A program made the position numbers and the translations under genes. Under the pieces are notes generated by a model that was not told the DNA's origin, ran no database searches, and saw only the letters and a program-made list of their open reading frames with translations. Positions 2,957-28,830 of a stretch of 29,192 nucleotides of DNA are shown piece by piece (within the stretch, counting starts at the first letter, position 1; the number at the start of each line of letters is the position of its first letter). Origin of the DNA: a virus (lineage: Duplodnaviria; Heunggongvirae; Uroviricota; Caudoviricetes); the IMG/VR virus record IMGVR_UViG_2728369181_000002, one strand, 5' to 3'.

Positions 2957-4035
2957 CAGAACGGGTCCTCCTGTACTCTGGCTTTTTTCTTTTTCCGCGC
3001 GCCGGGGGCTTCGGGTTCAGGCAGATAAGCATCAGGTGGGCCGACACGGATTTCCGTCAGGGTGCCGTTCTGGTCCTGAGTAAACGTGACTTCCGAGACA
3101 AGCAGTTCGGTATTGTCGAAACCACAGACCGGATCGAAGACAATCACCCGCTGGTTGGGTTGCCACAGCGTACCGTTACCCTGTCGCCAGCCCTGCACCA
3201 CATAGGTGGTTTCATCCGTCCGCGCCGCCCGTTGCCGGGCTTCAAAGTCCGCACGGGCAATACAGCCTGCCCCCGTAGCCTGCCCTGTCTGCCTGATATA
3301 CATCGGACGGTAACGGGCAATAAATGCGTCTTCTGTGCGGGCCCGCAGCGCGGTGGTGGTGGCCTCACCGAAATCATCGTCATTTCCGGCACGCTGCCCC
3401 GCCACCTGGTAAACTGAAAACCGCTCCCGGATACTCTTCTCCGTATCACAGGAAAGGATGTTTTCCCCAAGTACCAGCGCGGTATGTGCCCGCGTTGAGC
3501 CAATACCGCCAATCACCAGCCTGCCATGCGGGTCGTCGTAAGCCAGTGCCTGCTGCTGACCGAGTATTTTGTTGATCACCTCGATCACCGTTTCGCCGTG
3601 ATCAGGCTGGACATCCGGAATAACACCCGACGGCGCACCGTTGTTCACCACCTCAATGCCGAAAGGCGCAGCAAGCGCCTGCGCAATCTGTACCAGCGAT
3701 CGTCCGTTAAACTGTGTCGATTCGGCTGCACAGTCAATCAGGTCAGCGGTCAGACTGCGTCCGGCAATACCGGTGCTGACCGAACGGGCATCGTAACGAA
3801 CGGGCGTCGCCTCCACCCAGCCGGTGATCACCAGCTCATCACCAATCAGAACTTCCACTTTTGAACCATTTTTAATACGCGGCTGAAGCGTGGTGATACC
3901 CTCATCTCCCGGCCACTGGCGGGTGATCTCCACACTGAAATCCCGTGCCAGCCGTTCAATACCGGCACCGATGCGCACCGATGTCCAGCCATTCCACTCC
4001 CGGCCATTTACCCGTAGCGTGACGTTATCGTTCAT
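2956..4035 (-). CDS. tail/baseplate hub protein (Mu gp44 / P2 gpD-like)
   Basis: 359-aa ORF between the DNA-circulation-like gene and the V-like gene; ATG at 4035..4033. Confidence 0.5.
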   Translation of the reverse strand: MNDNVTLRVNGREWNGWTSVRIGAGIERLARDFSVEITRQWPGDEGITTLQPRIKNGSKVEVLIGDELVITGWVEATPVRYDARSVSTGIAGRSLTADLIDCAAESTQFNGRSLVQIAQALAAPFGIEVVNNGAPSGVIPDVQPDHGETVIEVINKILGQQQALAYDDPHGRLVIGGIGSTRAHTALVLGENILSCDTEKSIRERFSVYQVAGQRAGNDDDFGEATTTALRARTEDAFIARYRPMYIRQTGQATGAGCIARADFEARQRAARTDETTYVVQGWRQGNGTLWQPNQRVIVFDPVCGFDNTELLVSEVTFTQDQNGTLTEIRVGPPDAYLPEPEAPGARKKKKARVQEDPF

Positions 4036-5405
4036 TGCACTGGCACCTTCAGAGGGATCACCGGCACAAAGCCGGGATGTGTAATGGCATTGCGCCGGAT
4101 AATGTCCGCGTCACGCGCCGCGTTATCAAACCAGGTCGCCGCCAGCACCAGCGCGGGTAAAACCTCATCCGGCGTACGCTGAATGATCCGCGCAGACTGT
4201 TCAAGGCGCGTGTTGATATCCGCATTCAGATCTGCTTTCACCCGGCGCAGCGCCAGAAACAGCACATCACTGGTTGTACGGGACAACTCCTTATCAATTG
4301 CCGTATTCAGTGTGTCGCGAATGTCGGTCAGTTCTTCCCACGTTGGCAGGTCAACCGTGTTTTTCACCGCCGGTGCATTGTTCAGTGCCGGATGCGTGAC
4401 GGAAGGCCAGCCGGTGCTCTGCGCGGGTGTTGTTGACTGCCCCACTGCGGCATTCTGCATCACCGCGGAAGTTGTTGGCGCAGGCAATCGGGTAACGGCA
4501 TACGCCGCTTCGCTGATTGCAGTCGTACGAAGGGTGCTGGCAACCACGTTACGCTGCTGCGTCGCTGTGGCGGTGGTTTTACTATCCGTTTTCCAGACAC
4601 CGCGCGGTTGCAGATCGCTGCCGAGGCTGACACCGGAAAGCGTTTTGATCATGGTGACCAGGTCGCTGGCGTTACCATAAAGGCGCTTCCCGGTACGCCA
4701 CATTTTCTGCACCTGCTCAACGAAATTTTTGCCTGACGATGGCGGCGGCAGAAGTACCGAGATATCCCCCTGCAACAGCCTGGCGGCATCCGATACAGCA
4801 GAATCCACCACTTTCATCGCATCAGAAACATACCCCAGCATTATGCTGGCATTACCGATAACGTCGTTCTGCACGAAATCCGCCACACCATCGATACTGA
4901 AACCGCTGAAGCTGTCACTGATGCCGTCATCCAGTGCAGAACAGGATGACATCAGCGTCTGCGCCGTCGCCGCACCTGATGTGGGGTAAGAGAGTTCTCC
5001 TGCTTCGACAAACTTCAGGTCAAAGCGGACAATACGCCCTTCACTTTTCGATGTGCTGACCCGAACTTCCCCGTCAACACAGACTTTCAGCTCACCATAT
5101 GTCGGGTGGACAAGCGTGCCGGGACCGGGTTTATTCAGCGCGTCAATCAGGCGATCGCGCTGGTCAAAGCAGTCATCTCCCACCACATAAGCTGTGATGG
5201 ACGGGCGGAAAGTGACTTTTCCCAGATCTTCGGTATAGGGCTTGTCGCGGTTCGGGTATTCATGTGTTTCCACACGGCGACCGGTTCCCGCACTTTCTTC
5301 TTCAACCTTAAACGGCACACCTCGAAATGATGCTTCAAGTAGCTTTTCACGCCAGCCACTTCGAGAATCAGAGGATAGGTACGAAGAAATATGAGAAAAA
5401 TCCAT
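4032..5405 (-). CDS. tail protein of the Mu gp43 (DNA circulation protein) type
   Basis: 457-aa ORF with ATG at 5405..5403, directly downstream of the tape measure block in gene order. Confidence 0.5.
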   Translation of the reverse strand: MDFSHISSYLSSDSRSGWREKLLEASFRGVPFKVEEESAGTGRRVETHEYPNRDKPYTEDLGKVTFRPSITAYVVGDDCFDQRDRLIDALNKPGPGTLVHPTYGELKVCVDGEVRVSTSKSEGRIVRFDLKFVEAGELSYPTSGAATAQTLMSSCSALDDGISDSFSGFSIDGVADFVQNDVIGNASIMLGYVSDAMKVVDSAVSDAARLLQGDISVLLPPPSSGKNFVEQVQKMWRTGKRLYGNASDLVTMIKTLSGVSLGSDLQPRGVWKTDSKTTATATQQRNVVASTLRTTAISEAAYAVTRLPAPTTSAVMQNAAVGQSTTPAQSTGWPSVTHPALNNAPAVKNTVDLPTWEELTDIRDTLNTAIDKELSRTTSDVLFLALRRVKADLNADINTRLEQSARIIQRTPDEVLPALVLAATWFDNAARDADIIRRNAITHPGFVPVIPLKVPVQ

Positions 5406-5420
5406 GCCGTCACCTCAAAT

Positions 5421-5447
5421 AAAAACCGCGTGTAAACGCGGTTTTTT
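5421..5447. terminator. bidirectional intrinsic-terminator-like hairpin (AAAAA-CCGCG-loop-CGCGG-TTTTT)
   Basis: Stem ccgcg (5426..5430) pairs with cgcgg (5437..5441); flanked by an A5 run on one side and a T6 run on the other, so it has a U-tract in either orientation. Lies between the AT-rich moron and the next tail gene. Confidence 0.5.
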
Positions 5448-5461
5448 ATTAGGTAATAAAA

Positions 5462-5950
5462 TTAAAGATCATAATCAAAATTATGAGTATCTATTCTACA
5501 TGATGAATAAGCAATTCCGCTTTCACCACTAATATTTACGCCAGCCTTTACCTTCCCTGTCTTCGTAACATCAACAAAGAATTGCCCTCTTGGCATTTTA
5601 AATGCAAAAGAGAAACCAATAATTTCCGAGTCAAAGTCATTTTCATCCTCACTAATTGGTACAATAAAAGCCAATGGTGCAGATTGTGAGTTATTTTCAA
5701 AATCAAAAACACCAATTCCTTTATTAAACTCGTAGGATGCTTTTTTTATTAAAAGAGTTCCACTTGCCGACTTTGCTGGGCATATTACAGACAGTCTATT
5801 TATTCCCCCTACATCTAGATCTATATTCTTATCTGCTGAAGTTTTAACGTTATCTATAAAGTATGTAGCAAGCTGCTTTTCCGTTACTGGCTTCGCAAAG
5901 GAGTTTAATGGCAATCCTGCAGCCAACAACAATATAAACATTTTCTTCAT
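5462..5950 (-). CDS. hypothetical secreted protein (AT-rich moron inside the tail module)
   Basis: Start moved to ATG 5950..5948, which is preceded by AGGAGA; N-terminus MKKMFILLLAAGLPLNSFA is a typical Sec signal peptide; two Cys in the mature part; markedly AT-rich compared with the flanking tail genes. Confidence 0.6.
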   Translation of the reverse strand: MKKMFILLLAAGLPLNSFAKPVTEKQLATYFIDNVKTSADKNIDLDVGGINRLSVICPAKSASGTLLIKKASYEFNKGIGVFDFENNSQSAPLAFIVPISEDENDFDSEIIGFSFAFKMPRGQFFVDVTKTGKVKAGVNISGESGIAYSSCRIDTHNFDYDL

Positions 5951-5985
5951 ATTCTCTCCTACATTCAGCACAAACTTTACCACTC

Positions 5986-6016
5986 AATAACCCTACTTGA
6001 TTAAAGTAGGGTTATT
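5986..6016. repeat. perfect 13-bp inverted repeat (AATAACCCTACTT / AAGTAGGGTTATT) with 5-nt loop
   Basis: Read directly from the sequence; overlaps the tape measure stop codon (6015..6017) at the boundary with the moron. Confidence 0.7.
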
Positions 6017-7916
6017 ATCGTCTGAATGGAGAATACCCCACATCGTGCGTGATTTTCATCAGGGGATCGGCTTTGCCCGGTACATCAATTATCTTCATAC
6101 TTGGCGGAGCATTCTCGAACGTGACTTTCAGTTCGCTGTGCTGTGTCATGGAAGAAGATGGATTCAACAACGGAACATTGGGTTTGTACTGACTCAGGCT
6201 CGCCTGATACTGCTCGTACTCTTTACGATCAAAAAAAGGCGTCCAGTCTGAAGCCAGAAACAGCCCTTTATTATCCAGCCAGTTAACCGTATCTTCAGGA
6301 ACAACACTTTCCAGAGTATCTTTAACCGGCTCATACATCAGGGTTCCCAGAAAACCATATACCCCGGCCTTCCCGATAAAGCCGCGGCCTTTCCCCATCA
6401 ATCCCGTTTCTGCCGATACCTTCCCCAGCGTACGCATCTCTCTGGTCACTGCGGTAATGGATTTGGTAACGTCAGCAACCCATTTGGTTGTCATAAACAG
6501 GGCGATCGCTTTCAGAACAGTTTCCCATCCCCCCATCGCCTGCGCCGTTTCATCCACCACGCGCCAGACTTTTTTTATGACAGGACCTACGGTTTCCCAG
6601 TTATCAATAATGAGGTAAGCGCCACCGACCAGAAGAGCAATCAGCCCCTTAGCAGGCGTCATATTCATCACACCGCCGAGAACTTTCATGATTCTGGACA
6701 AAGAGCCTGCAGCGGCCCCCACTGTCAGTAAAGCCAGACCGATTTTAGCAATGGTCTTAACGAGCTCCGGGTTTTCACGGACAAACGTTCTCACTTCCTC
6801 AAGGAGCGGTTTTACCGCTTCAAGACCATCATTAACCTCAGGAAGAAACGTTTCCCCCAGAGTGGAAGAAATGGCATCAAGTTGATTTTGCAGAAGTAAA
6901 AGCTGGTTTTCCGTCGTCGCTGCCCTCGAAGCATATTCCTTCTGCATCGAACTGCCATACTGCTGGGAATCCGCAACCCGCCTGAAGTTGGTACGCAACA
7001 AATCAAGGTTAGTCAGCAGAGGTGCTATCGCGCCCAGAGACTCTTTCCCGAACAGGGCATTCAGCACAGCTGCCTGTTTTTCTTTAGGCACTTTAGCCAT
7101 CGCATCCAGTACAGACAGCATGGTGCCCCGGGCATCTTTCTGCATATCAGCAGCTAATTTCTTCGGATTGATCCGCAGAAAACGCAATGCCTGTTTCTGC
7201 GATTTTGTCGCGGAATTTCCCGCAGTCAGGGAAAGCATGAAGTTCTTGATCCCTGTGGCGGCAATTTCTGACTCCACACCCATCCCGGCAATGGTTGCCC
7301 CCATCGCCGCGATTTCGCCGGAAGCCACACCAGCAACACCACCTAAAGGACCAATACGCGTAACAATATCGGAGATTTTCTTCGCATTCGCCGGGCCGGT
7401 ATTACCAAGGTAGTTGATTTTGTCAGCCAGCCCGGCCACTTCATCCTGCGTCATATTAAACGCAGTACGCCACTGGGCCATCATCTGCCCGGACTCTTCA
7501 GCCGTGGTATCAAAGGCCACGCCCATCTTCACCGCATCAGTGGCAAACTGCATCAGTTCATCACGTGCAATCCCGGCCTGACCGCCAGCCGCCACAATTT
7601 CCGCGATCCCGTCTGCAGACATGGGAAGCTCAGTAGACAAAGCGCGTACCTGCTCCGTCATGGCCTTAAACGCATCCGGCGTATCCAGACCGTCCACCAC
7701 TTTGCGGACATCAGCCATCTTCGATTCAATGGTGATGGCTGATTTTACAGGGAGTGCCAGTGCCCCCATTATTGCAGTACCCGCCCCGGCAGCGCCTAGA
7801 GCAAGGCTGGAGACTTCTTTTTGAAACCCCTTAAGCTGACGCTGCATACCTTTAAGCGGGCCGGATAGCCTGTCAACGGCGGTGATGATGGCTTTCAGCT
7901 GAAAATTATCAGCCAT
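6015..7916 (-). CDS. tail tape measure protein
   Basis: 633-aa ORF, Ala/Gly-rich and predicted alpha-helical (MADNFQLKAIITAVDRLSGPLKGMQRQLKGF...); lies between the chaperone and baseplate genes. Confidence 0.8.
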   Translation of the reverse strand: MADNFQLKAIITAVDRLSGPLKGMQRQLKGFQKEVSSLALGAAGAGTAIMGALALPVKSAITIESKMADVRKVVDGLDTPDAFKAMTEQVRALSTELPMSADGIAEIVAAGGQAGIARDELMQFATDAVKMGVAFDTTAEESGQMMAQWRTAFNMTQDEVAGLADKINYLGNTGPANAKKISDIVTRIGPLGGVAGVASGEIAAMGATIAGMGVESEIAATGIKNFMLSLTAGNSATKSQKQALRFLRINPKKLAADMQKDARGTMLSVLDAMAKVPKEKQAAVLNALFGKESLGAIAPLLTNLDLLRTNFRRVADSQQYGSSMQKEYASRAATTENQLLLLQNQLDAISSTLGETFLPEVNDGLEAVKPLLEEVRTFVRENPELVKTIAKIGLALLTVGAAAGSLSRIMKVLGGVMNMTPAKGLIALLVGGAYLIIDNWETVGPVIKKVWRVVDETAQAMGGWETVLKAIALFMTTKWVADVTKSITAVTREMRTLGKVSAETGLMGKGRGFIGKAGVYGFLGTLMYEPVKDTLESVVPEDTVNWLDNKGLFLASDWTPFFDRKEYEQYQASLSQYKPNVPLLNPSSSMTQHSELKVTFENAPPSMKIIDVPGKADPLMKITHDVGYSPFRR

Positions 7917-8000
7917 GCTTCATCTCCTCATTTATACGGACGGCCTCTGCCTCCAGATCAGCAAAGTGGGAAATAGCCGTCCGGCGAAGTTCAAGGGGGT

Positions 8001-10892: not shown

Positions 10893-11395
10893 CTGTGTCG
10901 TCGCTCCGGCTTCAGTGATTTACGCAATTCCCGCGCCAGAAAATAGCGTGTCCAGCTGCGGTTCTTTTCAAGAGTTTCCACCATGAAGTTATTACGTGGA
11001 GCCAGTCGCCAGCCGCTGCCACCGGATGCACCACGATGATGACTACGACGACGTTTTGCTCCTCCCCGGACACCAAAAAACAGAAACGCCGGATAGAAGT
11101 CACCAGAGATCATCCGGTTCCCCTTCCCGTTGTGCTGGTTAGGGGCAATGCGTGTCATAAAACCGGCTCGCTTTTTACTGGCTCTCGGCACCATGTAACC
11201 AATCGAACGAGCCAGGCGTCCGGTCTGATAACCGGGGTTTTCACCCGGTGCCGACCGCGCACGGCGCATCACCAGCCGACGGGCATCACGCATATGACGC
11301 TGCCCAATCGTGATAAACGCCCGCCGGACACGGGCGCGGTTAAAGCGCATCTCCGCGGGCTGCTGAACATCAACGTGAAAAAAGGGAGTCGCCAT
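10889..11395 (-). CDS. virion morphogenesis / neck protein (hypothetical)
   Basis: 168-aa basic ORF with ATG at 11395..11393 preceded by GGAGG; lies in the head-tail joining block. Confidence 0.4.
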   Translation of the reverse strand: MATPFFHVDVQQPAEMRFNRARVRRAFITIGQRHMRDARRLVMRRARSAPGENPGYQTGRLARSIGYMVPRASKKRAGFMTRIAPNQHNGKGNRMISGDFYPAFLFFGVRGGAKRRRSHHRGASGGSGWRLAPRNNFMVETLEKNRSWTRYFLARELRKSLKPERRHR

Positions 11396-11780
11396 TGCTG
11401 CCTCCGTGACTCTGCGTAAATTCGCCCAGCTCCGTACACTCCAGCAGCAGAAAGCGCCGCGCCCCGTTCAGATCGCGCTGACGTTTCACCCGGTACACAC
11501 TGTCACCGCAGACCACCTCATAATCAGCGGTAATCCCCCGGCGGTAACGAATGGTGATGTAATGGGTGATGGCGTCCCCGGTCTGCGCGGTTTCCTGCCA
11601 GGTGGTGGCACTGGTCTGGATAACCTTCGCCCATGTCCGGAACGTAATCAGGTATTGAGGCTCCACGCCAAAGTTATCCGCGGGCATATCCACCCGCAGG
11701 CGGATCAGGACGCGTTTATTCAGTTCACCGGGGTCCGGCAGAATGTAGGTTGCGCTGGTCTGCGCCTGACGAATTTTCAT
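11370..11780 (-). CDS. head-tail joining protein (hypothetical)
   Basis: 136-aa ORF in the head-tail connector block; overlaps both neighbours. Confidence 0.4.
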   Translation of the reverse strand: MKIRQAQTSATYILPDPGELNKRVLIRLRVDMPADNFGVEPQYLITFRTWAKVIQTSATTWQETAQTGDAITHYITIRYRRGITADYEVVCGDSVYRVKRQRDLNGARRFLLLECTELGEFTQSHGGSNGDSLFSR

Positions 11781-12100
11781 TGCGGAAAGTACCTGTACGG
11801 GCCGACAAGCCAGCCAAAACTCTGCGGCATGTCGAGTTTCTCCACTTCCGTAACCGACGAGCGGTTTTCGTAAAAATGGCTGATAAGCATCAGCATCCCC
11901 AGACGAATATCATCCGGCAGGTGCAGCCCGTCCGGATCGCTGTCCGGAATGGTTTCATCCGGTGCATAGAGCTTCCGGTTCAGATACGTTTCCGTCCGCT
12001 TTTGTGCCGCACAGGCCAGCAGTTGCAGATGGCGGTCATCAGCATCGAAATCCTCATCCAGCCGGAGTTGGGCTTTAATCTCTTCCATTGTCAGAAGCAT
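11777..12100 (-). CDS. head-tail connector (gp6-like)
   Basis: 107-aa ORF starting MLLTMEEIKAQLRLDEDFDADD, resembling the N-termini of gp6-like connector/DNA-packaging proteins; downstream of the capsid gene. Confidence 0.5.
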   Translation of the reverse strand: MLLTMEEIKAQLRLDEDFDADDRHLQLLACAAQKRTETYLNRKLYAPDETIPDSDPDGLHLPDDIRLGMLMLISHFYENRSSVTEVEKLDMPQSFGWLVGPYRYFPQ

Positions 12101-12102
12101 AC

Positions 12103-12303
12103 TCAGCCCTCTTTACTGGTCGTGGCTTTTTTCTCTTTTGCCGCTTTACTGCTTTTTGCACTGATTCCGCGCTCTGCTAACCCGGCCTGAAGTGCAATCT
12201 CCTGCACCCGGGCAGGAAGCGCCCCATCGTCATACTCACCGGCCCGAATGACCTCAACACGCATACCGTCCGGTGACCATTTCAGATCTTGTTTCAGGAT
12301 CAT
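12103..12303 (-). CDS. small hypothetical head-associated protein
   Basis: 66-aa ORF with a Lys/Ala-rich tail, between the capsid and connector genes. Confidence 0.35.
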   Translation of the reverse strand: MILKQDLKWSPDGMRVEVIRAGEYDDGALPARVQEIALQAGLAERGISAKSSKAAKEKKATTSKEG

Positions 12304-12325
12304 GATTCTTCACCCGTCAGAACAG

Positions 12326-12345
12326 GGGGCGCGGTTCCGCGCCCC
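12326..12345 (-). other. GC-rich stem-loop just downstream of the major capsid gene
   Basis: GGGGCGC / GCGCCCC arms (up to 9 bp) directly after the capsid stop codon (12353..12355); no U-tract follows on the coding strand. Confidence 0.45.
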
Positions 12346-12352
12346 TGAGTGA

Positions 12353-13558
12353 TTACGCCGCTGCAATCTTCAGCAGTTTGATGGCCTGCGAATCGACCAG
12401 CATCCCGCCGGTGCGCTTGGTGGTATAAAAACCGACAAACGGTTTATTGGTGTACGGGTCACGCAGAATGCGGGTGCCGATACGGTCAACGATGGTGTAA
12501 CCCCGTTTGAAGTTACCAAATGCAATGGCTTTCGCATCAGCGGCGATATCCGGCATCTGTTCGTTTTCAGCGATACCGTAACCCGCCAGAGAGGACGGCT
12601 GCCCCAGTTCCAGCCCCGGACGCCACAGATAGTTACCCTCGCTGTCTTTAAGCAGACGGATGGCAAACAGGCTGTTGTTGTTCATCATGAACTTCGCGCC
12701 AGTGCGGTGTGCCTTACGCAGCGTGTAAATCAGTTTGATAATGGCGTCTGCGGTCACCGCCGTCGCTTCGCCGGATACAATATGCTGAAGTTTGCCGAAC
12801 GCCCGGACCTTATCGGTTTCATCAGTGGATTCATACGCCAGGAACCCTTTCGGCTTCTTGGTACCATCGCCGGTGGTAAAGGCAATTTCTTCCTGTTCGG
12901 CAAATTCGGTTGCCAGTTCGCTGTTGATCCATGCTTCCACGTTGAAAAAGGCATCATCCAGCATTTTCTGGGTGGCCTGCGGGTTACCGTAGATTTCCCC
13001 CATGAAAGGTTCAATCTGGCCCAGTTTTGAGGTGGCAGTCTGGGAGCGCGCGTCAGTCTCGCCAACCCATCCGGAAGCCGTGCCGCCCAGATTCACCAGT
13101 TTTTTGTAGTCGGAACCACCAACGGTGATCACCGTGGCTTCCTGGCGCATCACCACTTCATCTTTCAGCAGGGTGAGAATGTTGCGATCCAGTGCTTCCG
13201 GCACGGCATAGCCGCCGTCTTCATCGGTGCCCACCTGCAATGCCTTGCGCTCCAGATCGCGCAGACCATCTTCACGGCCTTTACGCAGGAAGCCCACAAA
13301 CGCTTCTTTATGCTCGGTGGCCAGTTTATTTTGCGCACCACCTGCCGGACGTTTCAGCTCAAGCAGCTCTTTTTCAAGATCGCTTTTGAGGTTTTCCAGC
13401 TCGCTGAGTTTCCCGTTCAGGGTTTCCACCTGCCCGGCAAGTTTGCCTTTTTCCTGCTCAATCGCATCCACGCGCTTGTCGTTCTTTGCTTTGAAGTCGT
13501 CAAACTTCTGCTGCAGCTCCTGCGCGACCTGTTCGACATCTTTAATATCAACCGCCAT
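12353..13558 (-). CDS. major capsid protein, HK97-like
   Basis: 401-aa ORF with AGGAGA before the ATG; N-terminal ~100 aa is a coiled-coil delta/scaffold-like domain (ELQQKFDDFKAKNDKRVDAIEQEKGKLAGQVETLNGKLSELENLKSDLEKELLELKR); gene order portal-protease-capsid. Confidence 0.8.
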   Translation of the reverse strand: MAVDIKDVEQVAQELQQKFDDFKAKNDKRVDAIEQEKGKLAGQVETLNGKLSELENLKSDLEKELLELKRPAGGAQNKLATEHKEAFVGFLRKGREDGLRDLERKALQVGTDEDGGYAVPEALDRNILTLLKDEVVMRQEATVITVGGSDYKKLVNLGGTASGWVGETDARSQTATSKLGQIEPFMGEIYGNPQATQKMLDDAFFNVEAWINSELATEFAEQEEIAFTTGDGTKKPKGFLAYESTDETDKVRAFGKLQHIVSGEATAVTADAIIKLIYTLRKAHRTGAKFMMNNNSLFAIRLLKDSEGNYLWRPGLELGQPSSLAGYGIAENEQMPDIAADAKAIAFGNFKRGYTIVDRIGTRILRDPYTNKPFVGFYTTKRTGGMLVDSQAIKLLKIAAA

Positions 13559-13572
13559 CGTATTTCTCCTGA

Positions 13573-14223
13573 TTAGAAGTTCAGATTTTTCAGTGCATTC
13601 AGTGCAGAGCCCACATCCTCAGCGTCGCGCAGGGACAGTGCGCCATAGCCCCCGGCCATGAATGCTTTGGCCTGGGTACGGGAGAGTCCGACATCACGCA
13701 GGACTCTTTCGATTTTTTTCTGTTCGGGGATTTCCCCGCGGGCCAGTGCGTTCTTGACGTCGCTGATCCGCGCCTCGTCGTTAGACGGGAACGTCACCAG
13801 GCTGACTTCCCAGAGGTCGATTTCTTTCAGCAGAAAGGCTTCTTTGCTCCGGTCGTATTCCCAGTCTTTCAGGACGTACCCAATAGAAAGGCCGGTTAAC
13901 GAACCGGCCTTCATGTGTGCATGTGCGCGTTTTGCGAGGGGATCATCATCAATAAGCAACCGTCCCCTGACGTAAAGCCCGACATCGTCTTCCTTCATTT
14001 CGGTGTAAACACCGATGGGTTCATCCATGCGGTGCTGCCAGAGCAGCGCAGGTAACGCTTTTCTGTCACTCCACGCCCGCAGGGAAGCAGCAAATGCCCC
14101 GGACATCACCACATCATCGTGGCTGTCCTTTACACCAAAGACGGAGCCATACCCTTCAAACTCACCGGAGTCACTGACAGATTTCAGACTCAGCGGTACA
14201 TCAAGACGTTGTTTCGTCTGCAT
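13573..14223 (-). CDS. prohead protease (HK97 family)
   Basis: Start placed at ATG 14223..14221 (MQTKQRLDVPL...), which has a GAAGGA ribosome-binding site, rather than the ORF-track start at 14259; position between portal and capsid. Confidence 0.7.
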   Translation of the reverse strand: MQTKQRLDVPLSLKSVSDSGEFEGYGSVFGVKDSHDDVVMSGAFAASLRAWSDRKALPALLWQHRMDEPIGVYTEMKEDDVGLYVRGRLLIDDDPLAKRAHAHMKAGSLTGLSIGYVLKDWEYDRSKEAFLLKEIDLWEVSLVTFPSNDEARISDVKNALARGEIPEQKKIERVLRDVGLSRTQAKAFMAGGYGALSLRDAEDVGSALNALKNLNF

Positions 14224-15442
14224 TGGCGTTATCCTTCTGCTTACCGGCTTTACTGCCATCGGAGGGTTTCGTGGTCATGTTCATCGGTGTGAGATAGACA
14301 TCCCCTCCGGGACGGGGATTCATATCTTCCAGGTCGCGGCAGTCATTGGGAGAGTAAATTCCCCAGTTAATCCCGGTGGCGTAGGCTTCAAAACGGGACT
14401 TCATATCCCCGCGCAGTAACGCCCCGGCGTTAAATTTGGCGTAATAAACGCCCTGCTTACTTTTTCGAACCAGTCCGGTGTTGATCCGCTGCTCGATGCG
14501 GGTCAGATACGGCACCAGTGAATAGTTGATAAATCCCAGCCCCAGCTCTTCAATATTGTTGAAGGTGGCGCGATCGGTGTTCTGCACCATGTGCAACGGC
14601 ACCCGGAACAGACGACAGATTTCTTCAAGCTGAAACTTGCGGGTTTCCAGGAACTGGCTGTCCTCGGCGTTCAGCGCCATCGACTTCCAGTCCAGCCCCA
14701 TCTCAAGGATCATCGGGCGGTGAGCATTGCCAAGCCCGGTGTGACGCTCCTCAAAATCTTTCTTCAGGCGCTCATAAGCCTGATCTGACAGCGTCTGCTC
14801 TGTACGCAACACACCCGACGTCACCGCGCCATTGCTGAACAGTCTGGCCCCGTGCTCTTCGGTCGCTGCCGCCAGCGATATTGCCTCGCGGGCATAGGCG
14901 ATGGGATTCAGCCCCACCAGTCCGTCCAGCGTCAGCGTGCGCACATGCCAGATATCCTCCTGGCTCAGTACATCCGTGGAGCCATCCGGGAATGTGACCT
15001 GATAGACCGGCTCCCAGCTACTGTTAAGCTTCGGTACCACACAGCCGGGATCGACGGGCAGCAGTTCAGCCACTTCGCCAAATGCTTTCACTTTGTAGGC
15101 GTAAAAGTTTCCCCGCAGGCACAGACAGGTGACCACCAGCTCCCAGAACTCCTGCGGCGTCATATAGCCATTGGGATGCGTGGAGATCAGCTTATGCAGA
15201 CGTTCGCCAGTGGCTCTCTGCTTCAGGCTGCCGTTCAGGTGATACAGGTTGCAGGGCAACATCCCGACCGACTCCGCCAGCACCCTAACACAGGAAAAAA
15301 CCGCCGTCAGTCGCATGGCCCGCTGGCTGCTGATCTGCTTTCCGGTATAGGTGTCGTAGGACAACCCGATAGCATCCGCCAGCTCTGCTGGCGTGGTCAC
15401 CGGTGCGTCACTTTTTCGTTGAAATAATCCCGAAAAGAACAC
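14201..15442 (-). CDS. portal protein (HK97 family)
   Basis: 413-aa ORF with GTG start, immediately downstream of the large terminase. Confidence 0.75.
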   Translation of the reverse strand: MFFSGLFQRKSDAPVTTPAELADAIGLSYDTYTGKQISSQRAMRLTAVFSCVRVLAESVGMLPCNLYHLNGSLKQRATGERLHKLISTHPNGYMTPQEFWELVVTCLCLRGNFYAYKVKAFGEVAELLPVDPGCVVPKLNSSWEPVYQVTFPDGSTDVLSQEDIWHVRTLTLDGLVGLNPIAYAREAISLAAATEEHGARLFSNGAVTSGVLRTEQTLSDQAYERLKKDFEERHTGLGNAHRPMILEMGLDWKSMALNAEDSQFLETRKFQLEEICRLFRVPLHMVQNTDRATFNNIEELGLGFINYSLVPYLTRIEQRINTGLVRKSKQGVYYAKFNAGALLRGDMKSRFEAYATGINWGIYSPNDCRDLEDMNPRPGGDVYLTPMNMTTKPSDGSKAGKQKDNANADETTS

Positions 15443-15624
15443 TATTTACCTCCGCCGACAGACGACTGTGTACGGTCGAGATATCGCGCCACCAGCCACG
15501 ACCAGAACAGGCACAACGCCCCGGCAACAACAAACCCCGCCGGGGGATAAATCAGCCAGGCACCATACGCCAGCAAAAGCGCCCCCAGCACGCCCACCAG
15601 AGGCGCGAGAATCAGCATGATCAT
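15442..15624 (-). CDS. small membrane protein (hypothetical)
   Basis: 60-aa ORF with two hydrophobic segments ([45 protein letters not shown]); GAGG before the ATG; between terminase and portal. Confidence 0.45.
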
Positions 15625-15635
15625 AATTACCTCAG

Positions 15636-17369
15636 TTAAAGCGAGCGGATCCCATAGGACTCAATGTGGTCAGACAGCGTGTCTTCTTTCTCGTACAGCA
15701 TGGCTCTGCCAACCGCCATAATCAGCGCAACTGCACCATCGATTTTGTTTTCCGCCTGCTCTTTGACGGGCTTCACCACATCATCGTTACCCGGAATGGT
15801 TTTGCCGACCACGTTGCCGATACACCAGGTCATGATGGGATTGCCATCATGATGAAAGCGCCCCGATTCAATTGCCGCTTCCAGCTCTTTCATCGGGTCG
15901 GACATGTTGGTGTAGTTCTGAATGATAGTGATGGGGTTCAGGTCTTCATCAGCAAGGTCATGTGACAACCCGGTCGCCCCGAAGGGGTCGATGGGTGACT
16001 CACTGACCGGGCTGATTTTGTTCGCCGCTTTGGCCTCCTCGAGGATGTAGCGATAATCCACCTCCGCACCATCGGTAACGGTCAGAACGCCCATTTCCAC
16101 CCATTTCTGAAAGCGTTCGGCTGTCCGTCGATCTTCATTTTTCTCGACGCTGTACACCGTGTCATACGGTACCCAGAAACGCGGGGCCACACTGTAGTAA
16201 TGCGTTTTACCGTCAATATCGCGGGTATAAAGTCGCGCCATGCTGTTCATATCCAGCTTACGCGCCAGGTCAAAGGCCAGAATGCACGGCTGCCCCTCGA
16301 ACTGCTCAAGGGTCAGTGATTTATCCTCGCAGCTCTGCCAGCTCACCAGGTTGAAATACGCCGAACGCGCCGACACCCAGATATTGAGGTGTTTTGTTTT
16401 AAAGACGTTTGCCAGACGGGCGTTATTTTTCGCACGCTGCTGCTGACTTAACAAAAATTCGCGATAAACCGACACGCCAATATTTGGATTGGCTTTTTCC
16501 AGCACCTGCGGGTCGGTCCAGTCGTCACCTTCATCAACGGTATAGATGATCCCGAACAGTTCATCGTTTGGTACCGAACCGTTGAGCATCTCGATGACTT
16601 CCCGCCGTTTGTCGTAGCACGGCCCCTCAATGTTGTACCCGGCGGTGGTGATAGCCCACATCAGTGGCTGACGTCGCGCCCCCATCCCGGTAAGCATCGT
16701 GGTATAAAGCGCATCGGTGGCGTGCTCGTGATATTCATCCACCACCGCACAGTGGGGTGATGAACCATCACCGGGGTTACCGATCAGCGGTTCAAACCGC
16801 GCGCCATCCTCCGGACGGTTCATGTTTGAGGCGTTAACCTCAATCCCGAACGCTTCCGTCAGCATGGGTGTGCGTTTACACATCAGTCGCGCCGGGCGAA
16901 AGACTTCCCACGCCTGTTTCTCTGTCGTGGCACCGGAATACACTTCCGCGCCAAACTCGTTATCACAGGCAAAACAATACAGGGCAACACCGGCAGAGAT
17001 TGCCGATTTGCCGTTCTTACGGGGGATTTCGGTATACACCTCCCGGAAGCGGCGCAGCCGGGACCCTTTATTGACCCAGCCAAACGCACAGCAGATCACA
17101 AAGAGCTGCCACGGCTCCAGCGTGATGGGCATCCTCTTGAATGCCCACTCCCCCTTGGTGTGTGGCAACAGCTGAATAAATTTCGCGGCCCGTTCAGCCA
17201 GGTCCTTGTCGAAGCGGTAACGAAACGACTTACTTTTTTCCGCCATCAGGTCATCAAGATGGCGCTGGCAGGCCTGAATCACAAACTGGCAGGCCACAAT
17301 CTTTCCGCGCACGACATCACGGGCATACTGATTGGCAGCATTTACGTTGGGGTAAGATTTCCGGCTCAT
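15636..17369 (-). CDS. terminase large subunit
   Basis: 577-aa ORF; ATGA overlap with the small-subunit gene; size and position upstream of the portal. Confidence 0.85.
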
Positions 17370-18382: not shown

Positions 18383-18703
18383 CTAAATCAGATCACCAAT
18401 GTATTTTGCACTAATTGAAATTTGCATCTGAGGCATTCCGACCACAGATCCATTTAACAGGTAATCACGTCCTCGTTCCTGCAAAGAAAGACTCAATTCA
18501 AAGTTCTTTACCCCAGGGAAAACCGAGGTGACATTTAAATCATGCTGCGATACGCGCAGAATAAGTTGGCTACCGTCAATTTTTCCCTGATACGTAAAAC
18601 CAAAATCTCCGCCGTTTACTGCATTGTTTTTGACAACTACGGTACCATTACCAAAATCACGTTGATTGCTTCTGAAAACAACAAAATAGATACCATCTTT
18701 CAT
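18383..18703 (-). CDS. hypothetical protein (AT-rich moron between lysis and packaging genes)
   Basis: 106-aa ORF with no signal peptide; AT-rich relative to flanks; followed by its own terminator. Confidence 0.5.
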   Translation of the reverse strand: MKDGIYFVVFRSNQRDFGNGTVVVKNNAVNGGDFGFTYQGKIDGSQLILRVSQHDLNVTSVFPGVKNFELSLSLQERGRDYLLNGSVVGMPQMQISISAKYIGDLI

Positions 18704-18795
18704 GTGTAAAGCCCTTTAAAAGAGTCACCAAAATCAGGTGCTTTGTATCTATTGGGCCATCACATATCAAATCAAGGAACAAAACAAAGTTAACA

Positions 18796-19065
18796 TCATT
18801 TTTTTTGCATGATGTGACCACGCTCAACTTCAATCCTTCTGATGTCAGCTTTATCGGTATTACACTGCGCCAATGCAGACAACAAGGCGACATTCAGATC
18901 TAAGCTCGAGCCCCACGTAAAATGATCAGGTAAATCAGGCTGAGGGGTTTCAGCCGTCAGGCTGGCTGGTAACGGAACTACCGGAACCTGGACGTAAACT
19001 GTTCGCGTACTTCCGCAACCGGTCAGCAGCGGCAGCAGGCACAGGACGTGAAGCACAATCATCAT
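18796..19065 (-). CDS. Rz1-like outer-membrane lipoprotein spanin (o-spanin)
   Basis: Start placed at ATGATG 19065..19060 giving MMIVLHVLCLLPLLTGCGS (lipobox LTGC) followed by a Pro-rich segment; begins inside the Rz gene in another frame and extends past its end. Confidence 0.5.
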   Translation of the reverse strand: MMIVLHVLCLLPLLTGCGSTRTVYVQVPVVPLPASLTAETPQPDLPDHFTWGSSLDLNVALLSALAQCNTDKADIRRIEVERGHIMQKK

Positions 19066-21094: not shown

Positions 21095-21847
21095 TCATCT
21101 CGTCACTTTTCTTAATTGCGCCTCAGCATATGCTTCTTCCTGCCAGCACTTTGTCACCAGTTTATCAATGACATCTGCATATCCTTTGTACCACTGATAA
21201 TCAGTCAGGTCCGGTACCAGCTTCTGGACATGATGCCGCGCCAGTGTGGTTGGTAAACGGCTAAACCGGTTTCCATTGCAACGCCCACAAATCTTATAAA
21301 CAGGCATGCCATGAAGCCGGGTTCTTTTTTCATCCAGGACAATACCTTTACCCTTACACCCTCTGCACGCTGTGCTGACTTCTCCCTTACCATGACAATG
21401 CTGACATAGTTCCTTCACCCACTCTTCCTTGATAACAGATTCCCCGTTTCTGGAGTGTTTCACCACTTCGCGCAATACATTATGAAATCCAGTACCAGCA
21501 CAATGCTCACAGCGAGCCTTACTTGCCGCAGATCTGGAATAATCAGCAAAGGCAAAATTCACAAGGTAAGGAATGATCTGTAGCCGGGTTTCTTCACTCA
21601 ATTTGTTCAATGTCGGGTTATCCAGTGCCATCGCGTAATTGAGCAGACCTTCAATCGCAAACTGAGGATCCTGAACACCAACTTTTGCCAGGAATAAGGC
21701 AAACCCAAGCGGTGCTTTCGACTGCACCATCCCCTGCGCAGCCATCACATCCGTAATCGTTAAACCACCCGAGCCTGTCGCCGGTGCGTCATCGCTCAGT
21801 TTTGGAGATTTTGGGGAGTAATATTTTGGTAAGGCTTCAAGGTTCAT
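21095..21847 (-). CDS. antitermination protein Q-like (contains four CxxCxGxG zinc-finger repeats)
   Basis: 250-aa ORF at the canonical Q position, after the nin-like genes and before pR'/lysis; contains CEHCAGTG, CQHCHGKG, CRGCKGKG and CGRCNGNR; GGAG ribosome-binding site. Confidence 0.6.
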   Translation of the reverse strand: MNLEALPKYYSPKSPKLSDDAPATGSGGLTITDVMAAQGMVQSKAPLGFALFLAKVGVQDPQFAIEGLLNYAMALDNPTLNKLSEETRLQIIPYLVNFAFADYSRSAASKARCEHCAGTGFHNVLREVVKHSRNGESVIKEEWVKELCQHCHGKGEVSTACRGCKGKGIVLDEKRTRLHGMPVYKICGRCNGNRFSRLPTTLARHHVQKLVPDLTDYQWYKGYADVIDKLVTKCWQEEAYAEAQLRKVTR

Positions 21848-22756: not shown

Positions 22757-23590
22757 TCAATGAACGGTATCGAGCAGCTTTAACAGCTCAGGGAATCGGG
22801 ATTCGAAGAAATGCGGCTGCGTCTCGCGCGGATTTGCGGGACTGGTGATGTTCTTGCCGAACATGCAACCTTTCGCTGTCAGCGACCAGAATTTTTTGAT
22901 GTTGTTAATCGCGGTACGGCTGTATCGTTCGCGCTGCTCGACGATCCCCAGTTTCACCATCTGGTGATATGCCTGATTAGCCGTCAGGCGTATACCATAC
23001 TGTTTCAGCAGTGCACTCAGTGACAGTGTCGGGCGACTTGAGCCNNNNNNNNNNNNNNNNNNNNNNNNNNNNNNNNNNNNNNNNNNNNNNNNNNNNNNNN
23101 NNNNNNNNNNNNNNNNNNNNNNNNNNNNNNNNNNNNNGAGTTTCTGACAGGCACCAAGCACTGAAGAGTTAGACAGGTTTAACTCCCGGCGCATAAAGTC
23201 CAGCAGGATCACGCCAGCCTGCATCTTGTCAGCAGCCTGTCCGGATAATTTTTCCGGTGCGCTGGTTACCATATCGAAAGTACGGATCACCTTCAGATGG
23301 AATGACGGGCTGATCCACATTGCATAGGCATACACCAGTTCCTTGCAGACATAAGTTCCCCGTTCATTTCCCCCATGAATCACACTCACCGGATCAACAC
23401 CCAAATTCTGGGTGTTGGTCAATTCATGAACAAGTTCAACAGTTTGTTGGCTGGAAAGAAACTTTCCTGGCTCCTTGGTTCTGGCATTGGCACCAGATGC
23501 TACTGCTGCGCGATGCAGATCGTTCAGGCTGTAACGCCCATAAGCATCACGACGAACTTCAATACCATCAATGACCATCAGATTATTCAT
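22757..23590 (-). CDS. KilA-N domain protein (interrupted by assembly gap)
   Basis: Start placed at ATG 23590..23588, preceded by AGGAGA (MNNLMVIDGIEVRRDAYGRYSLNDLHRAAVASGAN...); N-terminal region resembles KilA-N DNA-binding domains; the reading frame passes through the N-run 23045..23137. Confidence 0.55.
   Translation of the reverse strand: MNNLMVIDGIEVRRDAYGRYSLNDLHRAAVASGANARTKEPGKFLSSQQTVELVHELTNTQNLGVDPVSVIHGGNERGTYVCKELVYAYAMWISPSFHLKVIRTFDMVTSAPEKLSGQAADKMQAGVILLDFMRRELNLSNSSVLGACQKLXXXXXXXXXXXXXXXXXXXXXXXXXXXXXXXGSSRPTLSLSALLKQYGIRLTANQAYHQMVKLGIVEQRERYSRTAINNIKKFWSLTAKGCMFGKNITSPANPRETQPHFFESRFPELLKLLDTVH
23045..23137. other. assembly gap (93 N)
   Basis: Run of N inside the KilA-N gene. 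Confidence 0.99.
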
Positions 23591-26476: not shown

Positions 26477-27118
26477 TCATGCGTTAGTTTCTCCACAACC
26501 AGAAGCAATCGACGCCACGACGCCCGGAGCTGCACACTCGCGGGCGTTACTCTTTTCCGGCGCACAAAAAACACGAAATAACAGTGTCAAATGCTCCTGC
26601 CACTTCGCCATTACTTGGTAGCTGTTCTCTTCGATTTGCTCACGCTCAGCCTGGTCAATAACTCCATCAGCAGTTGCCTTGCGTAAGTACTGGGAATGCT
26701 TGCCAATCCATTCTATTGACTCCATCAGCCGCTGATTAATGTCACCATTGTCAATGTCATCAATGACCACCAGCGGCACAAACACCCCATTACTACGACG
26801 GGCTATTGCATCCGTTACATGCCTGGTACCACTGGCATCCTGTAAAACCATGGCCCACTCAAGTGGAAAAATTTGATCCCCACCGCTACGCAGTCTGTTA
26901 TGCAATTGATCTTTTGCTGGGGTGATATCATCAGATTTATACAAACCAAGAATTTCTGCTGCTTCCTCATAGCCATGAGGTAAATCAGCAATCGTTCTTC
27001 GTATTGCTGCCACCAGCCATGCTGGCTGTTTATCAACTTTCCATTCAGGTTCTTTACCCACGTTTAAGTCCTCATATCTGTGGTTTCTGTAAATCGATTT
27101 ATCCATTAGATTTTTCAT
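26477..27118 (-). CDS. CII-position regulatory protein (YdaT/CP76-like, tentative)
   Basis: Start tentatively at ATG 27118 ([19 protein letters not shown]...); second gene of the early rightward operon, directly after the Cro-like gene; family assignment from memory. Confidence 0.5.
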
Positions 27119-27299
27119 AAAGCTCAGGTTTAAATGGCAACCGTCCGCAAGTTCTATATGCAGCCTCTGCTGCACGTCCTTTTGGAATTAACTGGCCAGG
27201 ACGGTTTCGCCACTGATAAACGGCTTCAGTTGTTATGCCGAAAAAAGCAGCAACTTTCTCAATGCTGCCGAAGTAGCTTTCGATATCGTCAGTCGTCAT
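27099..27299 (-). CDS. Cro-like transcriptional regulator (YdaS-type helix-turn-helix)
   Basis: 66-aa ORF, ATG at 27299..27297 preceded by GGAGGG; helix-turn-helix-like segment VAAFFGITTEAVYQWRNR; divergent from the CI-like repressor. Confidence 0.6.
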   Translation of the reverse strand: MTTDDIESYFGSIEKVAAFFGITTEAVYQWRNRPGQLIPKGRAAEAAYRTCGRLPFKPELYEKSNG

Positions 27300-27311
27300 A
27301 TGCCCTCCAAG

Positions 27312-27374
27312 CTAAGTTTTATTAGATGTTAATTATCAATCTATCTTAGGTCAATAAAAACTAAGATTACTTAG
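27312..27374. promoter_or_regulatory. immunity-region operator cluster (CTAAG-N4-NTTAG palindromes) with divergent promoters
   Basis: CTAAGTTTTATTAG at 27312..27325 and CTAAGATTACTTAG at 27361..27374, plus a CTTAG-N11-CTAAG inverted pair at 27345..27365; all lie in the 97-bp gap between the divergent Cro-like and CI-like genes. Confidence 0.55.
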
Positions 27375-27396
27375 TAATTAAAGAAATGGTGCTCCT

Positions 27397-28023
27397 ATGG
27401 AAACGGTTGGTCAGCGTATAAAAGCTCTGAGAAGGGTTACCAGAACGTCCCAGAAAGAATTGGGTAAATTTTGTGGAGTAAGTGACGTTGCTGTGGGGTA
27501 CTGGGAGAAAGACATCAATGTCCCTGGTGGGGAAGCACTTTCAAAATTAGCGAAGTTCTTCAATACGTCAATAGATTACATTCTTTATGGTGCTGAGTTT
27601 GAAGGCAAACTCGTCACAAACATGCGCAGAGTTCCTGTAATCTCGTGGGTGCAGGCTGGGCAGTTTACTGAGTGCAGGACAGCAGAAGTGTTTAGTGAAG
27701 TAGACAAGTGGGTAGATACATCATTAAAGATTGGTGATAACTCATTTGCATTGGAGGTTAAAGGCGACTCCATGACTAACCCTAATGGCCTCCCAACAAT
27801 ACCAGAAGGCGCAACAGTGATTGTAGATCCTGATGCAGAACCCCGGCATGGAAAAATAGTCATCGCTAGACTTGATGGAACAAACGAAGCCACAGTAAAA
27901 AAATTAGTTATCGATGGCCCTCAAAAGTTTTTAGTGCCATTAAATCCCCGGTACCCCAACATCCCGATCAATGGTAATTGCCTCATCATTGGTGTAGTCA
28001 AAGGAGTTCAATACGAACTCTAG
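27397..28023 (+). CDS. CI-like repressor (helix-turn-helix domain plus LexA/S24-type autopeptidase domain)
   Basis: 208-aa ORF with N-terminal HTH (QRIKALRRVTRTSQKELGKFCGVSDVAVGYWEKD) and C-terminal S24-like region (GDSMTNPNGLPTIPEGATVIVDPD...GKIVIARL); no obvious ribosome-binding site, as for PRM-type leaderless transcripts. Confidence 0.85.
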   Translation: METVGQRIKALRRVTRTSQKELGKFCGVSDVAVGYWEKDINVPGGEALSKLAKFFNTSIDYILYGAEFEGKLVTNMRRVPVISWVQAGQFTECRTAEVFSEVDKWVDTSLKIGDNSFALEVKGDSMTNPNGLPTIPEGATVIVDPDAEPRHGKIVIARLDGTNEATVKKLVIDGPQKFLVPLNPRYPNIPINGNCLIIGVVKGVQYEL

Positions 28024-28041
28024 CCCCCCTTTTCTCTAACC

Positions 28042-28073
28042 AAAACACCGAACTAAGAAAAGTTTGGTGTTTT
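28042..28073 (+). terminator. candidate terminator after the repressor gene
   Basis: 13-bp stem AAAACACCGAACT / AGTTTGGTGTTTT (one G-U pair) with 6-nt loop, followed by a T-rich stretch; begins 19 bp after the repressor stop. Confidence 0.45.
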
Positions 28074-28088
28074 CTCTTGCCATTAAAA

Positions 28089-28102
28089 CTAAGTTAAGTT
28101 AG
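28089..28102. promoter_or_regulatory. operator-like site CTAAGTTAAGTTAG (third copy of the CTAAG-N4-NTTAG motif)
   Basis: Same motif and AAAA-flanked context as the site at 27361..27374; sits about 105 bp upstream of the ClpX-ZBD-like gene. Confidence 0.45.
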
Positions 28103-28207
28103 ATTTTATATCAAAGATAACGAACAGGCAGGACGCCCACGAAGTAGCCGCCGGTGGCGTATGAATGACCGGATGATTCGTTAAATACTATGTGTAAGAG
28201 AGCGCAA

Positions 28208-28411
28208 ATGAACCGTTATTTCACATGCTCGTTTTGTGGCGCAAACGAGCTGCGGGCAAAAAAAATCATCGCCAAAGGCGGAAAAGATGAAGTTGCTATC
28301 TGCTCTGAGTGCGTAGTCTTGTGTGTCGGGGCATTAATCAATATCAGCACAACTATTCAGTTCACACCAAATGAGAATGCGCCTTTAGATGCGCGGAAAT
28401 CTGGAGGTTAA
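28208..28411 (+). CDS. ClpX N-terminal zinc-binding-domain-like mini-protein
   Basis: Start placed at ATG 28208, preceded by AAGAGAG; 67 aa, MNRYFTCSFCGANELRAKKIIAKGGKDEVAICSECVVLCVGALI aligns with the C4 zinc-binding domain of ClpX (CSFCGK...VYICDECVDLC) as recalled; no AAA+ ATPase domain follows. Confidence 0.55.
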   Translation: MNRYFTCSFCGANELRAKKIIAKGGKDEVAICSECVVLCVGALINISTTIQFTPNENAPLDARKSGG

Positions 28412-28500
28412 AGAACAAAATGAAAGTCCAGATTTTAAACAATAACTGTGAAGTCGTTTGGGCGTAAAACATGACCGCGCGTAGACCAAGGGAGGGAAAA

Positions 28501-28677
28501 GTGGGAATAGTTAGAAATCAAGCAGATATATTGAAAATCAGCTCTGAATTGCTTGGAGTTTTGAAAAGTGAGCTCACCGCACATGGCATCGAGCCCACTG
28601 ACGAAAATTTAAGTTGGGTTTTGTCGATTATTCAACAATCACTCAAGCCCAGCCTCAGCAAACTTTTTATCGAGTAG
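28501..28677 (+). CDS. hypothetical small protein
   Basis: GTG at 28501 preceded by GGGAGGG at 4-nt spacing; 58 aa; AT-rich; its 3' end overlaps a convergent small ORF. Confidence 0.35.
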   Translation: MGIVRNQADILKISSELLGVLKSELTAHGIEPTDENLSWVLSIIQQSLKPSLSKLFIE

Positions 28678-28830
28678 TGCTTCGAACTTATCGTAAAGCT
28701 TGCTTATGTCGTCTATCGGGTTTTCTGACGTACTGTAATTTTTATCTGATGTCATGGCAGCAGTCTGATATGCAGTGTGAGTCTTAACCGATAGTTGGAA
28801 TAAATAAAGAATTTTTTCTTCTTTGGTCAT
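28639..28830 (-). CDS. hypothetical small protein
   Basis: ATG at 28830..28828 preceded by AAGGAAA (MTKEEKILYLFQLSVKTHTAYQ...); 63 aa; AT-rich; convergent with and overlapping the 28501..28677 ORF. Confidence 0.35.
   Translation of the reverse strand: MTKEEKILYLFQLSVKTHTAYQTAAMTSDKNYSTSENPIDDISKLYDKFEALLDKKFAEAGLE

Follow-up and report, generated by a model that had tools for sequence, protein, structure and literature searches.

A short AT-rich cassette between two tail genes of an Escherichia coli prophage is probably a moron, that is, a self-contained accessory low-GC (guanine-plus-cytosine) gene that has its own ribosome-binding site and terminator and sits in a recurrent cargo slot. The window analyzed in this study was the whole 29,192-nucleotide stretch of IMG/VR record IMGVR_UViG_2728369181_000002. 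Sequence comparison places the element that carries the cassette among the SfV/SfIV-like lambdoid prophages of E. coli; its contractile tail is of the Mu type, and all genes of the tail part are on the minus strand. The cargo gene (5462..5950, minus strand, stop codon 5462-5464) has as its upstream neighbor the tail tape measure gene (6015..7916, minus strand, stop codon 6015-6017), which matched Pfam PhageMin_Tail (2.2e-42) and phrog_28. Its downstream neighbor is a Mu gp43 (N)-like "DNA circularization"/baseplate hub gene, hereafter N (4032..5405, minus strand), which matched Pfam DNA_circ_N (8e-34) and the baseplate hub family phrog_184. According to the list of open reading frames (ORFs) and their translations, the cargo gene encodes 162 amino acids from an ATG codon, and the same start is annotated by RefSeq in a 99.7% identical prophage (WP_074613461.1); the product is predicted to be the precursor of an exported small beta-barrel protein of PHROG 5586. 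The GC content was 0.345-0.35 over 5401-6000, which is the minimum of the window, compared with 0.51-0.59 in the adjacent tail genes (4001-5400 and 7001-8000). A ribosome-binding site, AGGAG (5956..5960, minus strand), was read 5 nt before the ATG and was unchanged in 20 of 20 related loci. These results agree with the initial annotation of the window, which had described a low-GC gene with its own ribosome-binding site at this position.

The cassette was absent from prophages with nearly the same tail. In SfIV, an isolated serotype-converting Shigella phage (PMC3851460), and in E. coli CX05, the tape measure gene directly adjoins N at a distance of 24 bp, and both genes encode proteins 98-99% identical to those of the window; in UTI89 the gap between the two genes is 60 bp. 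The cassette was present in 101 of 5,426 complete E. coli genomes; 1,091 genomes matched the adjacent part of N, and 100 of these contained the cassette. The initial annotation had proposed comparing the tape measure/N junction among related prophages, and the adjacency of the two genes in SfIV, CX05, and UTI89 confirmed an insertion polymorphism. The opposite outcome, a tail component conserved in all relatives, was not observed, as SfIV and most related prophages lack the gene. Presence or absence among close relatives, deviating GC content, and, at the sequence level, a terminator of its own were all found. Near-identical tails (98-99% for tape measure and N) that do without the cassette support the moron suggested initially, here an accessory and horizontally mobile cassette as opposed to a universal tail component.

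A simple insertion or deletion event was rejected as the origin of this difference because the exchange also takes in the ends of both flanking genes. The difference from SfIV and CX05, which have an empty site, extends over approximately 5358..6025 and comprises the cassette, the start of N, and the end of the tape measure gene. As seen in the CX05 alignment and the N-terminal translations, the first ~17 codons of N (MDFSHISSYLSSDSRSGW... versus MDLSSFPTRPSLLSSSSGW...) and the last tape measure codons change along with the cassette, and in tblastn searches N matched only from residue 14 onward. Mosaic boundaries lie inside both structural genes (5358-5405 and 6015-6025), where cassette-bearing and empty-site prophages have different alleles. 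Judging from these alignments, the exchange follows the mosaic pattern typical of lambdoid phages.

Downstream, the cargo gene is closed by a bidirectional-looking intrinsic terminator (5417..5447, minus strand) composed of a GC stem (CCGCGT/ACGCGG), a loop, and then UUUUUAUUU. On the coding strand, the hairpin starts 14 nt past the cargo stop codon and UUUUUAUUU comes next, after which the terminator abuts the ribosome-binding site of N (GAGGTG, 5411-5416), with the ATG of N right behind. The hairpin has perfect 11-nt arms (5421-5431 and 5436-5446), a 4-nt loop, and an A-run and a T-run on either side; its RNA fold had a free energy of -20.4 kcal/mol (z = -6.2), and 0 of 200 shuffles were equally stable. 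The perfect arms, the z score, and the A-run/T-run flanks bear out the bidirectional terminator-like hairpin noted initially at 5421..5447, and by its sequence the element at 5417..5447 is a textbook intrinsic terminator. A simple terminator scan did not list this hairpin, which may be due to its A/T extension being counted as stem, and Rfam gave only a sub-threshold match of the hairpin to a leader/attenuator model. The terminator was kept in 20 of 20 close relatives among the related IMG/VR loci. Dissimilar hairpin-plus-T-run terminators were found at the equivalent place in three diverged lineages and behind an unrelated cargo, and the empty tape measure/N junctions had none. We assign the terminator to the cassette because the gene has one in every lineage and context, as does the unrelated cargo in the same slot, and empty junctions have none.

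On the other side of the gene, a perfect 13-bp inverted repeat (5986..6016; arms 5986-5998 and 6004-6016, 5-nt loop) overlaps the tape measure stop codon. Its arms are 100% complementary, and the fold gave z = -4.6 to -5.8. The repeat was perfect in only 7 of 20 related IMG/VR loci; 12 of the 20 carry three mismatches in the stop-codon-proximal arm, which weaken the fold from -18.7 to -8.9 kcal/mol, and no U-run lies behind the repeat on the coding strand. A role of this palindrome as a terminator, an operator, or an insertion scar was rejected, as nothing was found in support of one: it is degenerate in 12 of 20 relatives and lacks a U-run. Thus, the 13-bp repeat of the initial annotation is real in the window, yet perfect in a minority of relatives, and the picture of a gene bracketed by hairpins holds for the conserved downstream terminator but not for the upstream palindrome, which is degenerate in most relatives. 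In one decayed prophage (L016:3793-5489, IMGVR_UViG_2778261416_000006), the holin, lysozyme, and Rz genes are joined straight to the loop of the palindrome; the terminase, head, and tail genes through the tape measure gene are gone, and the cargo gene and N are intact.

A candidate extended -10 element, TGgTAAAGT (5974..5982, minus strand), was read from the sequence upstream of the cargo gene. Of 20 related loci, 19 have exactly this element and one has TAAAGC; it is retained in the decayed prophage, where all sequence farther upstream is replaced. When the upstream regions of the four tail lineages that carry the gene were compared by eye, no promoter was found in common.

The tape measure/N junction also holds other cargo. 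In E. coli CH4804 (L040:3990-4620, NZ_CM166344.1), the junction corresponding to 5406-6014 of the window contains an unrelated AT-rich gene encoding a 176-amino-acid protein of phrog_5485 (cargo B) with a hydrophobic N-terminus, followed by its own hairpin-plus-T-run terminator just ahead of the ribosome-binding site of N. At 178 of the 5,426 complete E. coli genomes, the cargo B cassette was more frequent than ours (101). Three further diverged lineages with Mu-like tails have a relative of our cargo protein (37-49% identity) at this junction. In the Shigella/E. coli type, detected in 11 E. coli genomes, the cargo protein, tape measure, and N are 48%, ~71%, and 53% identical to those of the window; the corresponding values are 37%, ~63%, and 53% for the Salmonella enterica type and 43%, 45-54%, and 72% for a second E. 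coli type. S. enterica carries the 37% identical relative extremely often, several sequences being found on at least 1,000 contigs each. The GC content of the cargo gene in the diverged lineages was 0.35-0.39, compared with 0.47-0.56 in the flanks, and every lineage has a different GC hairpin and T-run directly ahead of the N start. The junction is therefore a recurrent slot in SfV-like, Mu-tailed prophages that accommodates at least two unrelated cassettes, together present in ~290 of 5,426 complete E. coli genomes. The initial annotation had regarded an insertion at this position as unusual; this was not supported, since the junction holds at least two unrelated cassettes and the same family recurs in four tail lineages, and since HK97 gene 15, the founding moron, likewise adjoins the tape measure gene (PMC3594210).

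Relatives at a greater distance (27-30% identity, including one from Pantoea) are located outside tail modules on phage-plasmid-like contigs (L007:740-1270, L008:1-452, and L009:2919-3413), which speaks for mobility of the gene. They adjoin genes for ParA/CbiA, a cI-like repressor, and IncFII RepA, with PemK/MazE or Gp49/HTH (helix-turn-helix) toxin-antitoxin pairs as further neighbors, and each is then followed by a bidirectional terminator. Searches with these distant relatives against phage and plasmid collections using tblastn returned almost nothing. Two variants of the gene were also recorded: a 98.7% identical allele occurs in several O25b:H4-ST131 genomes, and in L035:4051-5001 (IMGVR_UViG_2874968258_000001) an insertion sequence, IS1 (InsA/InsB ORFs), lies in the 5' end of a Shigella-type copy and has removed the signal peptide.

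The cargo protein gave a full-length match to phrog_5586 (E = 2.6e-81), and all relatives tested matched this family over most or all of the model (E down to 2.6e-13). As PHROG 5586 has no assigned function, membership is uninformative on mechanism, and the source names of family members are all "hypothetical protein" or "Phage protein". Searches of Pfam, NCBIfam, and PDB sequences gave nothing significant for the cargo protein, Pfam had no match for any of 11 family members, no defense family of PADLOC-DB was hit at E <= 10, and Foldseek against PDB and BFVD returned nothing below E = 0.01. The initial assignment to an unknown family was thereby upheld, phrog_5586 being the only match alongside searches of Pfam, NCBIfam, PADLOC, and PDB sequences.

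The N-terminus has the features of a Sec signal peptide, predicted to comprise residues 1-19 (MKKMFILLLAAGLPLNSFA; 5894..5950, minus strand) with cleavage before Lys20. It reads MKKMFILLLAAGLPLNSFA|KP and divides into MKK, MFILLLAAGLPL, and NSFA|K, i.e., two Lys residues, a hydrophobic core (mean Kyte-Doolittle value of 2.76), and small residues at -3 and -1, with no acidic residues. The same n-, h-, and c-region features and a small-x-Ala|Lys/Gly site were found in nine of nine other family members (seven full-length proteins and two N-terminal fragments), the sequences of which have diverged. The classic Sec signal peptide proposed initially is thus supported in the window and recurs in all nine of these members. 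Because this signal peptide contains no Cys and hence no lipobox, the window protein is not a lipoprotein. The 48% identical Shigella/E. coli variant (P0007, L005:4825-5307) has a GTG start and a lipobox-like LTSC in its signal peptide, and judging from this motif it might be a lipoprotein, unlike the window protein.

For the mature part, AlphaFold with a 14-sequence alignment that included remote relatives from an exhaustive hidden Markov model search produced a model with a mean predicted local distance difference test score (pLDDT) of 89.1 and a predicted template modeling score of 0.85; a 3-sequence alignment gave a pLDDT of 39. The model has an N-terminal helix and eight beta-strands, and the fold is confidently predicted to be an eight-stranded antiparallel beta-barrel preceded by this helix. 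Two Cys residues, Cys57 and Cys151 (precursor numbering), are conserved across the family, the former just past strand 1 and the latter within strand 8 in the predicted order. Because strands 1 and 8 would adjoin in a closed barrel, a periplasmic Cys57-Cys151 disulfide that closes the barrel is plausible in this model. The codons at 5758-5769 encode Ser61-Gly64, a family-invariant SASG that also occurs in the inhibitory loop of MliC (ISASGARY in E. coli YdhA); this overlap between sequences is probably due to chance. Membership in the MliC/PliC family, considered because of the fold and the SASG motif, was rejected, as the family profile reached a probability of 0.09% when aligned with MliC/PliC sequences in hhalign and none of the 11 family members matched Pfam.

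We compared the rates of nonsynonymous (dN) and synonymous (dS) substitution in the cassette and its flanks between the window and close alleles in the four locus pairs with measurable divergence; in one further allele, the cassette did not differ at any synonymous site. In the same pairs, dS was 0.034-0.044 for the cargo gene, 0.033-0.052 for the tape measure gene, and 0.051-0.073 for N. These similar values indicate that the cassette has traveled with its flanks. The dN/dS ratio of the cargo gene was 0.27-0.74, based on small counts of ~4-10 nonsynonymous and ~4 synonymous substitutions, compared with 0.05-0.14 for the tape measure gene and N, suggesting from sequence comparison that the cargo gene is under weaker or partly diversifying constraint. 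The ORF stays intact, and its core is conserved down to 27% identity.

The prophage carrying the cassette has close relatives. The window is collinear with a prophage integrated beside dusA in E. coli PigCaeca_1, and their tail regions are 98.3% identical. The head of the PigCaeca_1 prophage is of the HK97 type and its contractile tail of the Mu type, and it also contains a lysis cassette and an antiterminator of the Q type. In the window, the gene for the Q-type late antiterminator is at 21095..21847 (minus strand), where the collinear PigCaeca_1 ORF is annotated as an antitermination protein. Phage vB_EcoM-720R4 (ON470603) has the same arrangement as the window with 97.8% identity, and a literature search found no paper on the cargo gene or on this phage. 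Similarity to the otherwise near-identical PigCaeca_1 prophage is patchy over the head region (11196-15714; an 84.6% block and gaps), and this pattern indicates a mosaic replacement of the head module. Milder low-GC stretches (0.41-0.44) at 18500-19000, 23000-23500, and 27000-29000, in the lysis-proximal and the early/immunity regions, may contain further accessory genes.

The closest precedent for such a cassette among morons, taken in the Juhala/Hendrix sense, is HK97 gene 15, which adjoins the tape measure gene in the tail operon and the product of which excludes superinfecting phages with a specificity that depends on the tail region of the incoming phage (PMC3594210). Like HK97 gene 15, the cargo gene is an extra tail-operon gene beside the tape measure gene that is absent from close relatives, deviates in GC content, and has its own terminator, and like gp15 its product is predicted to be located in the envelope. 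The two differ in that gene 15 precedes the tape measure gene and the cassette follows it, and gp15 is a small inner-membrane protein, whereas the cargo protein is predicted to be a soluble exported beta-barrel with no sequence relation to it. Other exported phage or prophage proteins that block an incoming phage at the envelope include T5 Llp, phi80/N15 Cor, and T4 Sp, of which Llp and Cor are lipoproteins. For Ltp of TP-J34, another such protein, Bebeacua et al. (2013), as cited in PMC3952083, give the incoming phage's tape measure protein as the target. Unlike Ltp, Llp, and Cor, which are lipoproteins, the window protein lacks a lipobox Cys, and no homology to these three or to Sp was detected, so that any likeness would be mechanistic only.

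A terminator directly behind the cargo gene would be useful only if a terminator-sensitive polymerase transcribes the gene, and we therefore infer a promoter of its own that is active in the lysogen. In the lysogen, the gene would be transcribed alone, possibly from the extended -10-like element at 5974-5982, and the terminator at 5417..5447 would stop this transcript ahead of the baseplate genes. During lytic growth, polymerase modified by Q would read through the cassette terminator into N and the baseplate genes. The mature protein would be released to the periplasm and act there as a binding or inhibitor protein. The initial annotation had named lysogenic conversion, superinfection exclusion, and defense as candidate roles. 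Our best guess at its function, which we offer tentatively, is superinfection exclusion or the neutralization of an incoming envelope-active factor; in the case of exclusion, the cargo protein could bind a protein that sits at the tail tip of the incoming phage or is ejected by it, as Ltp targets the tape measure protein. This function was ranked first because of the persistent tape measure/N linkage, the faster evolution of the protein, and the precedents for tail-directed exclusion.

Several points weigh against this account. The cargo protein has no sequence match or significant Foldseek match to characterized exclusion or defense proteins; its signal peptide was judged from residue features rather than by a trained predictor; and the functional guess draws only on localization, on the class of fold, and on linkage. 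That the gene has stayed so long at one junction in four diverged tail lineages also agrees better with an accessory function tied to the tail than with random cargo. As for expression, a consensus sigma-70 promoter scan upstream of the cargo gene found none, and the cargo gene of the Salmonella-type lineage starts only ~20 nt past the tape measure stop. Autonomous transcription is for these two reasons something that we infer, and, from the sequence, the gene might instead be expressed late only.

If so, the cargo protein could be an accessory factor of the lytic cycle that is made only from the Q-antiterminated late operon and acts in the periplasm at or after lysis, where it could modulate lysis or peptidoglycan hydrolases or prevent the loss of progeny on cell debris. 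The negative promoter scan would be expected in that case, as would the Salmonella-type arrangement, which leaves no intergenic space for a promoter, and the position in the late operon is conserved in four lineages; the fold may also resemble those of PliC and PhiA, which like MliC are periplasmic inhibitors of lysozyme and peptidoglycan hydrolases. However, a strong terminator right behind the gene would be of little use if only a terminator-resistant polymerase transcribes it, and a terminator, each time a different one, accompanies the gene in every lineage and in contexts other than the operon. Near-identical tails without the gene show that it is dispensable, relatives are also found in lysogeny and maintenance regions, and the decayed prophage L016 retains an intact copy after the loss of all late genes upstream. 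We consider a late lytic role improbable on balance. A structural explanation, in which the protein is a genuine optional tail component or assembly factor, can draw on the retention of this position, flanked by the tape measure gene and the hub gene, in four diverged lineages of Mu-like tails and on a dS equal to that of the flanking tail genes, which implies co-inheritance. It is very unlikely nonetheless, because tails are assembled in the cytoplasm and the protein has Sec export features, SfIV (PMC3851460) and most related prophages lack the gene, its composition is foreign and its terminator its own, and relatives also occur outside tail modules.

A role directed at the host ranks above both, although we still regard it as unlikely. 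As a lysogenic-conversion or fitness factor, a periplasmic calycin-like protein that binds a ligand or another protein could alter the envelope, stress tolerance, or resistance to host lysozyme or competitor toxins. The predicted eight-stranded barrel, which may be lipocalin/avidin/PliC-like, would suit such a protein, the gene is present in clinically important lineages (several O25b:H4-ST131 genomes) and widespread in S. enterica, and there are morons with a role directed at the host, lambda Lom among them (PMC3594210). Against it, the family profile shows no detectable relation to MliC/PliC (the hhalign value given above), no Pfam or NCBIfam match exceeded the threshold, and a host-directed role gives no reason for the lasting linkage to the tape measure and N genes. 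We rank exclusion or neutralization ahead of host-directed fitness, followed by a late lytic role, with a structural role in the tail last.

Morons are well known, and the protein already had an entry as a PHROG and, in RefSeq, as a "hypothetical protein"; as a moron, the cassette is an ordinary one that encodes an uncharacterized protein family. Our analysis provides confident predictions of fold and export for a family very common in S. enterica and also present in several ST131 E. coli genomes, as well as a testable hypothesis of a periplasmic exclusion factor that is linked to its tail and encoded in clinically important lineages. In its most specific and more speculative form, which we put forward as a doubtful but defined proposal, PHROG 5586 would constitute, for the Mu-tailed temperate phages of Enterobacteriaceae, a new family of superinfection-exclusion factors that act in the periplasm and bind the tape measure, N, or hub proteins that the cognate tail of an incoming phage ejects there. 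If true, this would explain why the gene is linked to the tape measure/N junction and has diverged along with it, and the junction would be a dedicated slot for envelope-active cassettes.

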